From the NCBI RefSeq assembly GCF_054482525.1, contig NZ_CM137006.1: DNA of 64,000 bases. The stretch is one strand, 5' to 3'. Below are positions 30,801 to 33,800 of the stretch, one piece after another. Within the stretch, counting starts at the first letter, position 1, and each line of letters begins with the position of its first letter. The position numbers are program-made.

Positions 30801-33800
30801 ATAGTCAAGGGGAATCTAAATTAATTTAAAAAAAGGTCGGCATAACCGACCTTAAGTTCAAGGACATAGCAGGGTTATAGGTTGAACTGCACACCTTTTG
30901 CTACGGCAACAATTTTACACTCTGGCGTAAGCAAGGATGATTGATAGCGCGGATTGAGAGGGCTTAAATACACAAGTTTTCCATCAATAACTAATTTTTT
31001 TATAGTCATAGACGGTTCATTTGTAAGTGGATCTGGAACTATTACAGCGACGATACTGCCATTTTTATAACTCTCTCCTGGTCTTAGGATCACAGTGGCA
31101 CCAACCGGGATACTTGGTGACCCTGAGGGGTTATGCATAGTGTCATCAGGCATTGAAACGGCAAAATCACCTTCCACTACATCAAAGAATGTGGTGATCC
31201 TATCGACATTTCCCATTGTTTTCTCTCCTTCTAAGATTAGGAAAGAAATCGCGTCACCCCACGAAAAGTAGGGGATCTTGGTGCCTGGATTGCTCTGCAC
31301 AAAAGATAGTTCAGGAGACGATACTCCATACAGGAGATAGGACTCAGTAGTTCCTAATGCCTGGGCTAACTTACTTAGAGCTTTGCTGCCGGGTTCGTTT
31401 AGATCTTTCTCCCAGTACCCTATAGTAACCCCAGTCACGCCTGAAAGCTTACCCAGTTCTACTTGGGTGAGTCCCTTATCTTTTCTGAGTTTCTTAAGCC
31501 TGATGCCAAGGCTTTCCATCATTTTCTCCCGCGAGTTGAATATAAATTATTTTAGATTGCATTGACCTAAAAAAAATTATCCTGTAATCTAAAAATACTT
31601 AGATTTTAGGAGAGTAAAATGCGAGTTGATGAACTTGTTCAGTTTTTTGGCTCTGTTCAGAGGGTCGCTGATTTTTATGGGATAACCCGCGAAGCTATTT
31701 ACATGTGGCGTAAGCGCCCCGGTGAAATAGTTCCGAAAGGGAGAGCTGCGGAAGCTGCTGCATACTCCAAGGGAAAATTATCTTTGAACCCAGAGCTTTA
31801 CAAAAAGAAGGATACCACCCGGGACAAAAGGAAGAGTGATTCATGAAAATCAAACATGAACATATCCGCATGGCGATGAATGCCTGGGCGCATCCGGACG
31901 GCGAAAAAGTACCGGCTGCGAAAATTACCAAAGCGTATTTCGAGCTGGGAATGACGTTCCCGGAACTGTATGACGACAGCCATCCGGAAGCCCTAGCTCG
32001 CAATACTCAGAAAATTTTCCGCTGGGTGGAGAAAGACACCCCTGATGCGGTTAAAAAAATTCAGGCGTTGTTACCAGCTATCGAAAAAGCAATGCCACCT
32101 CTGCTGGTGGCCCGAATGCGCAGTCATAGCTCAGCCTATTTTCGGGAACTAGTGGAGACGCGGGAACGACTGGTGAGAGACGCTGATGATTTTGTCGCAG
32201 TGGCGATCGCTGGTTTCAACCAGATGAATCGTGGTGGCCCTGCAGGAAATATTGTGGCTGTGCATTGACTCGCAATATTCATACCGGATCACTTCCGGCA
32301 ATTTGTGAGTAAAAAGATTCGGTATCAAAAGAGGTGAGTATGGCTAACGCCTGGCTCAGATTATGGCATGACATGCCAAATGACCCTAAGTGGCGAACAA
32401 TTGCCAGGGTGTCAGGGCAGCCAATTGCAACAGTGATGGCAGTGTATATCCACCTCCTGGTGAGCGCGTCACGAAATGTCACGCGAGGTCACATTGATGT
32501 CACGACAGAAGATTTGGCAAGTGCGCTCGACGTGACAGAAGAGGTAATTGATTCAATTTTGCAGACGATGCAGGGGCGGGTACTTGATGGTGATTTAATC
32601 ACTGGATGGGAAAAACGCCAGGTGCTTAAAGAGGACAACGGCAATATTTCGCAAACCGCAAAATCTCCTGCAGAGCGCAAGAGGGCGCAGCGAGAGAGGG
32701 AAAGAAAGCGGGAACAAAATGGCGATTGTCACGGCGCGTCACGAAATGTCACGCACATGTCACGACGAGTCACGACAGATAAAGATACAGATAAAGATAC
32801 AGATCAAGAAGATCAAAACACTATGGTCCATGGCGTAAAAAACGCCACGAACCAGGCAGGGGATGTTCAGACCGTCAATCCTGGTCAGCCAGCAGGCACG
32901 ACACCGGAAGCCGATTCAGCGTATGCGCTGAAAGCCGATTCGGGCGCTGTGCAGCAGGTGATGACCGCAAGGCCGGAGCAATCACACCAACTGCAGCAGC
33001 CTGAAGCCGATTCCGCCATTCAGCGGGAAGCCGATCGGGTAGTCCCGGAAAGCACCGGGCAGTCTGTGGGACGAGTGGATTATCCGGATGTGTTCGAACA
33101 GGTCTGGCGGGAGTACCCGTTGCGTGCTGGGGCAAACCCGAAGAAATCCGCTTTCAGTGCTTGGAAGGCCAGATTACGCGAGGGGGTGCCACCAGAGGCC
33201 ATGCTGGATGGCGTGAGGCGTTACGCAAGATACTTGGCGGCTACCGGGAAAACGGGAACGGAATTTGTTCAGCGAGCGACGACGTTTTTTGGACCGGATC
33301 GGAATTTTGAGAACCCCTGGTTGCTCCCGGTAAGCGGCACGAACAACCAGCGTTGTGTGAATCATATTTCTGAACCGGATAACGAAATTCCGCCGGGCTT
33401 CAGGGGGTAAGTGTTAATTTCTGGTCATGAGGTAATTTTCAGGAGGGCTTGTGGCAAAAGTTTTTACACAAGAAGAGCGGGAAAAAATTAAAGGGCAGGT
33501 TGTTGAACTTGTACGTCTGAGCGGTCGCGAGACGTTGCGGCAACTGGAAGCCAGGACAGGTGCGACAAGATATCTGATGAGTGTTCTCGCCAGAGAGCTG
33601 GTTGCCAGTGGCGATGTATACAACTCTGGTTACGGGTTATTCCCGTCTGAACAGGCGCGTAAGGACTGGCAAAATGCTCGCAAAAAACTCTCAAGGGCAA
33701 AGGTGAAGAAACCTGCAGTGGTTGATCCGGACCTTATCTGGTCGTTACCAGACGGCGAAATACGCCGCTACGACAGGCGCCTGAATATAATCTGTCGCGA

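Follow-up and report, generated by a model that had tools for sequence, protein, structure and literature searches.

An Initiator Gene with Two Phased Repeat Arrays

We analyzed a stretch of 64,000 nucleotides from contig NZ_CM137006.1 of RefSeq assembly GCF_054482525.1 (hereafter the window), which carries a lambdoid prophage, and focused on a candidate replication origin located inside the replication initiator gene of this prophage. The early genes are arranged in the order cI-like repressor (on the opposite strand), Cro/DicC-like gene, CII-like/YdaT gene, and initiator, and the initiator occupies the O position of the lambdoid early-right operon. The same coding sequence is annotated in RefSeq as a phage replisome organizer or a hypothetical protein; relatives are named by NCBI either "phage replisome organizer" or "DnaT-like ssDNA-binding domain-containing protein" (ssDNA, single-stranded DNA), and near-identical genes are present in deposited phage genomes. 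The coordinates of the gene and its features are listed in table 1.

All of the repeats described here are located inside the open reading frame (ORF) 32340-33410. They form two arrays of direct hexamers, separated by 260 bp, with a single inverted copy standing apart from both. Array 1 consists of four direct copies 10-11 bp apart and codes for residues 43-55, which comprise the end of a helix and a loop, and array 2, with the same spacing of 10-11 bp, codes for residues 130-146 of a disordered linker. The spacing within the arrays thus corresponds to one copy per helical turn, and the presence of at least three direct repeats in helical phase, a characteristic of iteron-type theta origins, was observed in both arrays (four plus five copies). 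In total, positions 32468-32774 contain nine exact GTCACG hexamers, counting both strands, and one GTCACA. GTCACG occurs 43 times on both strands of the window, and nine of these lie within these 307 bp, where 0.16 would be expected (Poisson P = 2e-13). Adjacent pairs of GTCAC[GA] spaced 9-12 bp apart were found seven times here and not once elsewhere in the 64 kb. In addition, an exact 20-mer, CGCGTCACGAAATGTCACGC, is common to both arrays (32465-32484 and 32735-32754).

Array 2 directly adjoins an A-rich tract, and together they code for linker residues 130-157. Within this tract, ACAGATAAAGAT is found at 32775-32786 and again at 32787-32798, followed by a third copy with 83% identity at 32799-32810. 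Of all 50-bp segments of the gene, 32774-32824 has the lowest stability, with a nearest-neighbor free energy (dG) of -57.2 kcal/mol compared with a gene mean of -73.6 +/- 4.4, which places it 3.7 standard deviations from the gene mean and at the 98.9th percentile of the whole window; its composition is 72% AT, with 70% purine on the top strand. Two GATC (Dam) sites, at 32802 and 32811, lie 9 bp apart in the tract, and GATC is often observed at the corresponding place in enterobacterial homologues. An earlier note on this DNA, made from the sequence alone, had described two clusters with at least nine TGTCACG-type copies, the second of them followed by AT-rich direct repeats, as a lambda-like arrangement of iterons and an AT-rich region within the initiator gene. 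Both clusters and the repeats of the tract are present as described, and the layout matches that of the lambda origin and of SPP1 oriL; the 20-bp duplicate, which had been placed at about 32467 and 32737, is indeed exact, but its true starts lie 2 bp to the left.

Directly 3' of the tract lies an imperfect palindrome, which on the minus strand resembles a terminator-like hairpin. The palindrome was also observed in Shigella phage 75/02 Stx (locus L001, 2912-2940) and in two further loci, L078 and L128 (about 1509-1540), with paired substitutions (TCC/GGA vs. TTC/GAA; inner T/A vs. A/T), and it is thus shared by Escherichia coli and Shigella relatives, O157 variants included. When distant homologues were searched systematically for hairpins at this place, the result was not significant, and we therefore consider the palindrome only a possible third origin element. 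No DnaA box with at most one mismatch was found in 32200-33500, no RNA family of Rfam matched within the origin segment (the only match, sok, lies further downstream), and nothing in a promoter and terminator scan exceeded the shuffled expectation. GC skew was not used as evidence for an origin, because the early operons diverge and change strand at a distance of 1.2 kb, which would confound it.

Table 1. Features of the initiator gene and of the gene that follows it (positions in the window)
Feature	Coordinates	Strand	Description
Replication initiator gene, "phage replisome organizer"	32340..33410	+	356 aa; phrog_3729 "replication initiation protein", 1-356/356, E = 2e-257
N-terminal winged-helix domain, residues 1-125 (presumed iteron-binding module)	32340..32714	+	
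Iteron array 1	32465..32507	+	GTCACG at 32468, 32478, 32499; GTCACA variant at 32488
Single inverted iteron copy	32531..32536	-	CGTGAC on + strand; codes D64-V65-T66
Iteron array 2	32724..32774	+	Five direct GTCACG at 32728, 32738, 32748, 32759, 32769
A-rich, purine-skewed tract (candidate DNA-unwinding element)	32775..32824	+	ACAGATAAAGAT x3, then AGAAGATCAAAAC
Imperfect palindrome	32824..32854	.	TGGTCCATGGCGT-AAAAA-ACGCCACGAACCA, directly 3' of the A-rich tract
Helical C-terminal domain, residues ~245-317 (presumed helicase/loader-recruiting module)	33072..33290	+	
C-terminal tail	33336..33407	+	GTNNQRCVNHISEPDNEIPPGFRG; resembles last 20-24 residues of host DnaT
DUF977/Ren-like gene	33451..33876	+	Pfam DUF977, E = 1.4e-27 over 1-135; phrog_142 "Ren-like exclusion protein"

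Synonymous Constraint within the Repeats

Since the repeats are part of a coding sequence, they could in principle be without function at the DNA level and stem from chance or from a protein sequence that is repetitive or compositionally biased; the earlier note had named protein repetitiveness as one finding that would overturn an origin. The conservation of the peptides SRNVT, GH.DVT, and DKDTDKD at the protein level is in keeping with this explanation. However, we found it hardly credible when reading frames, recoded sequences, and synonymous positions were considered. The nine direct hexamers are read in all three frames, as V-T, S-R, or x-H-x. When the same protein was recoded with synonymous codons sampled according to the codon usage of the window, the recoded genes contained a mean of 1.5 hexamers, and the maximum in 20,000 trials was seven, so that the observed count of nine was never attained.

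We then compared the synonymous positions among homologues. A scan of genome contigs with one genome per species was the source of diverse homologues and provided 42 loci from beta-, gamma-, and alphaproteobacteria, whereas a scan of viral contigs with the C-terminal domain provided only loci that were 98-100% identical and, except for two mosaic genes, uninformative for covariation. In 22 of the 42 loci, GTCACG arrays were observed at the same gene offsets (128/138/148/159), with an inverted copy near offset 191 in most of the homologues and three to five copies of array 2 from about offset 388. The genomic GC content of these 22 species ranges from 0.48 to 0.69, and their genes contain 5-15 copies of GTCACG, compared with 0-4 in approximately 4.5 kb of flanking sequence.

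A codon alignment was made of 21 GTCACG-type genes from beta- and gammaproteobacteria, which have a median amino acid identity of 73%. Outside the repeats, conserved residues use three to six synonymous codons, and silent sites are saturated. Within array 1, in contrast, the codons are fixed (V47 GTC, 21/21; T48 ACG, 21/21; G50 GGT, 20/20; H51 CAC, 20/20; V54 GTC, 21/21), as are those of array 2 (H131 CAC, 20/20; S141 TCA, 21/21; V144 GTC, 20/20), and the valine of the inverted copy, V65, is GTG in 17 of 18 genes. Overall, 11 of 17 codons in the repeats are at least 95% fixed versus 1 of 54 outside (Fisher p = 5e-8). Shared ancestry cannot yield such a contrast, because it is internal to the same sequences. 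The contrast was also found in an independent sister clade of more distant homologues that carry a different 10-bp repeat, CCGAACGCAA, where 9 of 9 codons are fixed in the repeats and 0 of 42 outside (p = 3e-10).

The A-rich tract showed similar conservation. In every one of the 21 GTCACG-type genes (group A) and in most of the genes with CCGAACGCAA (group B), array 2 is succeeded by GATA[AC]A repeats, and an equivalent tract is kept even in a homologue with only 31% AT overall; among the tract codons, D147 is GAT in 18 of 18 genes and K148 is AAA in 16 of 18. An easily melted AT-rich region next to the repeats, which is another characteristic of iteron-type theta origins, is present and conserved regardless of genome GC content.

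Four homologues from one betaproteobacterial metagenome-assembled genome lack any repeats and retain the fold, which indicates that the protein fold does not require them. These homologues (L114, L115, L119, and L120), four copies in one bin, lack the A-rich tract as well and have a Pro/Ala/Ser-rich linker in place of the arrays; they may be initiator homologues that have taken on a different role.

These results showed that selection acts on the repeats and the A-rich tract as DNA and maintains them. The stretches encoded by the arrays and the tract, namely a helix end, a loop, and the disordered linker, tolerate a sequence imposed by the DNA better than any other part of the protein.

Repeat Types and N-Terminal Domains across Relatives

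Three types of repeats were observed among the relatives. In addition to the GTCACG type, 13 more distant homologues without GTCACG have arrays of CCGAACGCAA in its place at both array positions; the sequence that comes next is (AGATAA)n, (AGATAC)n, or a run of purines. Furthermore, in Shigella phage 75/02 Stx, an O157:H7 prophage, and two viral contigs, an unrelated N-terminal domain is fused to the C-terminal half found in the window, and these genes carry GGGGCTT repeats at 11-bp spacing in two clusters about 255 bp apart, followed by (CAGGAA)n. The two arrays of any one gene are always of the same type, an A/purine-rich tract accompanies all of the types, and the three repeat types (GTCACG, GAACGC, and GGGGCTT) track three types of N-terminal domain. 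The repeat sequence changes together with the type of the N-terminal domain; repeats that are kept as DNA and are specific to the type of initiator are a further characteristic of iteron-type theta origins. Array 1 also grows by whole repeats, with 7 aa added in an O157 variant and two extra copies in Escherichia albertii (21-bp insertions).

The homology of the window gene to gp15 of 75/02 begins exactly after the A-rich tract (residue 158; L001, about 2860-2910), so that the origin would lie at the junction where exchangeable N- and C-terminal modules have been recombined into mosaics. Among the GGGGCTT genes, array 2 is inverted in 75/02 (L001, 2830-2860) and direct in the related prophages L078 and L128 (1420-1455), and this flip alters the encoded peptide (IEAPSEPLSS vs. 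RGFEGAFKGLRS). A different change was observed in the homologue of Pantoea sp. BAV 3049 (L109), whose 434 aa include an insertion where the linker and the origin are otherwise located (gene offset about 330-480). The insert (YYVYFVVLRSNYDCYVGISSNPWARVNDLKKG) resembles a GIY-YIG nuclease and is flanked by ACTACG/CGTAGT, and it may be a homing endonuclease in the origin.

The orientation flip of array 2 between related 75/02-type genes would also be compatible with a regulatory function, in which the hexamers are protein-binding sites for autoregulation, a transcriptional roadblock, or handcuffing copy control, and the true origin is located elsewhere in the prophage. Consistent with such a function, there are two separate arrays 260 bp apart, of which the upstream one has no adjacent AT-rich tract. 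Iteron plasmids have auxiliary iteron arrays, and the layout of the window gene recalls them. Nevertheless, we considered this explanation improbable, because array 2 invariably adjoins a conserved A-rich repeat tract of low stability, which is a hallmark of origins, because no other phased hexamer array is present within the 64-kb window, and because the position in the middle of an initiator gene matches that of two experimentally proven origins (PMC7466680, PMC5737612).

Domains of the Initiator Protein

The initiator appears to be composed of an N-terminal winged helix, a long disordered region, a helical C-terminal domain, and a short tail. When modeled alone, the N-terminal domain was predicted as a winged helix with a predicted local distance difference test (pLDDT) score of 80, and a fold search with this model indicated resemblance to the DnaD N-terminal domain and to the winged helix of a plasmid initiator. 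In the full-length AlphaFold2 model, residues 132-243 are disordered, residues 248-317 form helices, and the tail is disordered; a fold search with this model, which is poor (pLDDT 58), gave no significant match. The C-terminal domain, for which the earlier note had suggested a domain search, matched phrog_1701 "DnaD-like helicase loader" (E = 5e-63) and phrog_9327 "primosomal protein". Beyond it, the tail matched DnaT: residues 333-356 align with profile positions 156-179 of 179 of NCBIfam NF002770, and the DnaT chains 6aep_A and 9zbt_D of PDB align over the tail. The initiator ends in ...RCVNHISEPDNEIPPGFRG, which is near-identical to the extreme C-terminus of DnaT, and several homologues with other C-terminal domains keep the tail motif.

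A Pfam scan of the window protein found no significant domain. Phage_rep_org_N (PF09681) remained below the threshold (E = 0.24), yet its match spans model positions 1-118 of 121, and the PHROG "replisome organizer" phrog_4880 was matched with E = 5.5e-6. Homology to lambda O was considered and rejected, as the Pfam family Phage_rep_O was unmatched in the protein and in 16 homologues. The gene, which had been described as O-like in the earlier note, is O-like only in position and role. The PHROG matches and the NCBI names speak for placing it in the "phage replisome organizer" group, and the Pfam E value and the comparison with SPP1 G38P described below do not.

Neighboring Genes and the Helicase Loader

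The initiator gene is separated by only 40 bp from the DUF977/Ren-like gene, which is followed by QueH and HokD. No helicase or loader gene was found downstream of the initiator, and the annotation of the equivalent prophage includes none at any position. This bore out what had been noted earlier from the sequence, namely that no P-like loader gene is recognizable downstream, and the domain search proposed for the protein encoded at 33451-33876 identified it as DUF977/Ren-like and not as a helicase loader. Upstream of the initiator, the gene at 31843-32268 has conflicting annotations, as a "CII-like transcriptional activator" in PHROGs (phrog_163) and as a "toxin YdaT family protein" in RefSeq. 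Just past the replication module, the gene at 34030-34716 is an epoxyqueuosine reductase QueH in RefSeq relatives and matches phrog_3217 (unknown function). It precedes a hok/sok toxin-antitoxin locus (34784-35108), in which sok (Rfam RF01794, 110 bits, 34784-34958) overlaps the HokD ORF (34896-35108).

The genes that accompany the homologues support an initiator role of the window protein. A P-like loader is the partner in Bordetella, a DnaB-like helicase in Stenotrophomonas, and primase-helicases in Serratia and Variovorax; the homologues of Pseudomonas and E. albertii are followed by no loader. In the 75/02 and O157:H7 relatives that share the C-terminal domain, a DnaC-like ATPase gene follows the initiator, and this ATPase and a DUF1627 protein lie between the initiator and the Ren-like gene, where the window has 40 bp. 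This difference could indicate that the replication module of the window has lost a DnaC-like loader and that the origin, although of a genuine type, is an inactive relic. We considered an inactive relic quite improbable: the initiator ORF is intact and of full length, several deposited phage genomes, Tritos among them, likewise have no loader gene in this arrangement, the E. albertii and Pseudomonas homologues also have none, and host DnaC could replace the phage paralogue.

A Probable Replication Origin within the Initiator Gene

On the basis of the phased arrays, the adjoining tract of low stability, and their conservation, we proposed that the segment 32465-32854 is probably the vegetative replication origin of the lambdoid prophage, written into its own initiator gene (32340-33410). 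It would be an in-gene origin in the style of lambda and SPP1, whose firing we infer from the sequence and from comparison.

We proposed the following mechanism for initiation at this origin. After derepression, the initiator would be made from the rightward early operon, and its DnaD-like N-terminal winged helix would bind cooperatively to the hexamers, along a single face of the DNA helix. The five-site array, once bound, would make the adjoining A-rich tract of the supercoiled DNA less stable, an effect that lambda O and SPP1 G38P have at their own origins, and the upstream array would either join the same nucleoprotein complex by looping or tune initiation, as in copy control. The C-terminal domain and the DnaT-like tail may then bring in the DnaB-DnaC complex of the host, which would be used because the phage encodes neither a helicase nor a loader. 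A role of the DnaT-like tail in helicase recruitment is a speculative lead.

Several points weigh against the origin that we propose. In the literature that we searched, there was no experimental evidence of binding, unwinding, or origin firing for this group of initiators. The lambda and SPP1 models leave the role of array 1 unexplained, and the predicted recognition helix of the N-terminal domain (residues 67-77) is acidic. As the repeats lie inside the gene, their covariation with the N-terminal domain cannot fully separate repeats that are bound by the gene's own product from repeats that are inherited together with it. Lastly, with neither a helicase nor a loader of phage origin, the replicon might be incomplete in this prophage.

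A further-reaching proposal, which we regard as rather unlikely, is that the gene constitutes a complete 1.1-kb single-gene replicon that requires no phage helicase or loader. Its tail and C-terminal domain would plug into the DnaB-DnaC or the PriA-PriB-DnaT restart machinery of the host, and the two arrays would be looped together into one initiation complex. Since one E. coli genome can contain as many as six copies of this iteron type, the origins of co-resident prophages would then be cross-fired when one prophage is induced, with amplification of the neighboring chromosomal DNA.

Distribution and Significance

The GTCACG-type origin segment (391 bp) was found in 2035 of 5426 complete Escherichia coli genomes, some of which contain it at as many as six places, and RefSeq mostly labels the gene "hypothetical protein". 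Up to six segments in one genome raise the possibility of cross-activation or interference among co-resident prophages. The in-gene arrangement of an origin is already known from lambda and SPP1, and the family described here is uncharacterized but very common; our literature search found no paper on the origin or the iterons of this family, or on DnaT-like phage initiators.

The proposed location of the origin would provide a handle on the replication of a large group of lambdoid prophages, among them relatives of the Eru4 module of Stx phages. It also has a bearing on which prophages have a common initiator specificity and might consequently disturb or cross-activate each other. In addition, the module may illustrate how replication starts without a helicase loader of its own, for which the DnaT-like tail offers a testable lead, and we consider the loader-less, DnaT-tailed initiator the part most worth experiment. 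Furthermore, as a compact and conserved module of gene plus origin with at least three natural specificities (GTCACG, GAACGC, and GGGGCTT), it could supply small orthogonal replicons.

Comparison with Known Systems

The lambda origin consists of iterons and an AT-rich tract in the middle of gene O, and in the O genes of Stx phages two extra iterons correspond to an in-frame insertion of 13 aa (PMC7466680). The proposed origin resembles that of lambda, and of the Stx phages 933W and P27, in its position in the middle of an initiator gene that follows cro and cII, at the junction of a DNA-binding N-terminal domain and a recruitment C-terminal domain, and in its direct repeats with an AT-rich tract downstream. 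As in lambda and the Stx phages, the number of iterons varies by in-frame insertions, which here are the 21-bp insertions in the E. albertii and O157 variants. In contrast to the lambda iterons, however, the repeats of the window are shorter, with 6-bp cores at 10-11 bp spacing. The window gene also differs in that it has a second array 260 bp upstream, a DnaT-like tail, and no sequence relation to O, and is accompanied by no P gene. Its family further differs from lambda in a conserved GATA[AC]A tract and in a scaffold that occurs in nature with no fewer than three specificities.

In SPP1, oriL comprises AB boxes and a DNA-unwinding element inside gene 38; it is bound by G38P and is sufficient for replication in vitro (PMC5737612). 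Both this origin and the one proposed here are located within the initiator gene, with repeated boxes next to an AT-rich tract, which is the unwinding element in SPP1 and a candidate for it in the window, and the SPP1 repeats lie at about nt 360-450 of gene 38, an offset similar to that of array 2; the RefSeq name of the window protein is likewise "phage replisome organizer". Unlike the prophage of the window, SPP1 has its own helicase and loader, and an hhalign comparison of the N-terminal domain alignment with G38P detected no similarity (probability 0.1%).

Another close system is the replication module of Shigella phage 75/02 Stx, which is of the Eru4 type (PMC8951638). Its gp15-gp16 region shares with the window the C-terminal half of the initiator (65% amino acid identity from residue 158), two arrays about 250 bp apart, a tract of purine-rich 6-bp repeats, and then the same palindrome, whereas the N-terminal domain is unrelated, the repeats are GGGGCTT at 11 bp, and a DnaC-like loader gene follows. 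The papers that define the Eru types of Stx-phage replication regions contain no analysis of origins.

On ssDNA, E. coli DnaT (primosomal protein I) assembles into filaments, and it is believed to bring in DnaB/DnaC; it is itself recruited to forks by PriA/PriB and binds no specific duplex sequence, and the cryogenic electron microscopy study of DnaT assigns no role to its extreme C-terminal tail (PMC13377028). It is this tail that the initiator shares, as the last 20-24 residues (VN.[IV]SEPD..IPPGFRG) match the C-terminus of DnaT. The ssDNA-binding domain of DnaT (PF17948) is absent from the window protein, unlike many homologues of the N-terminal domain, which carry it in full; it is present in 5 of 16 aligned homologues. 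The N-terminal domain itself, as modeled, is a winged helix alike in fold to the DnaD N-terminal domain and to plasmid initiators of the RepA_N type.

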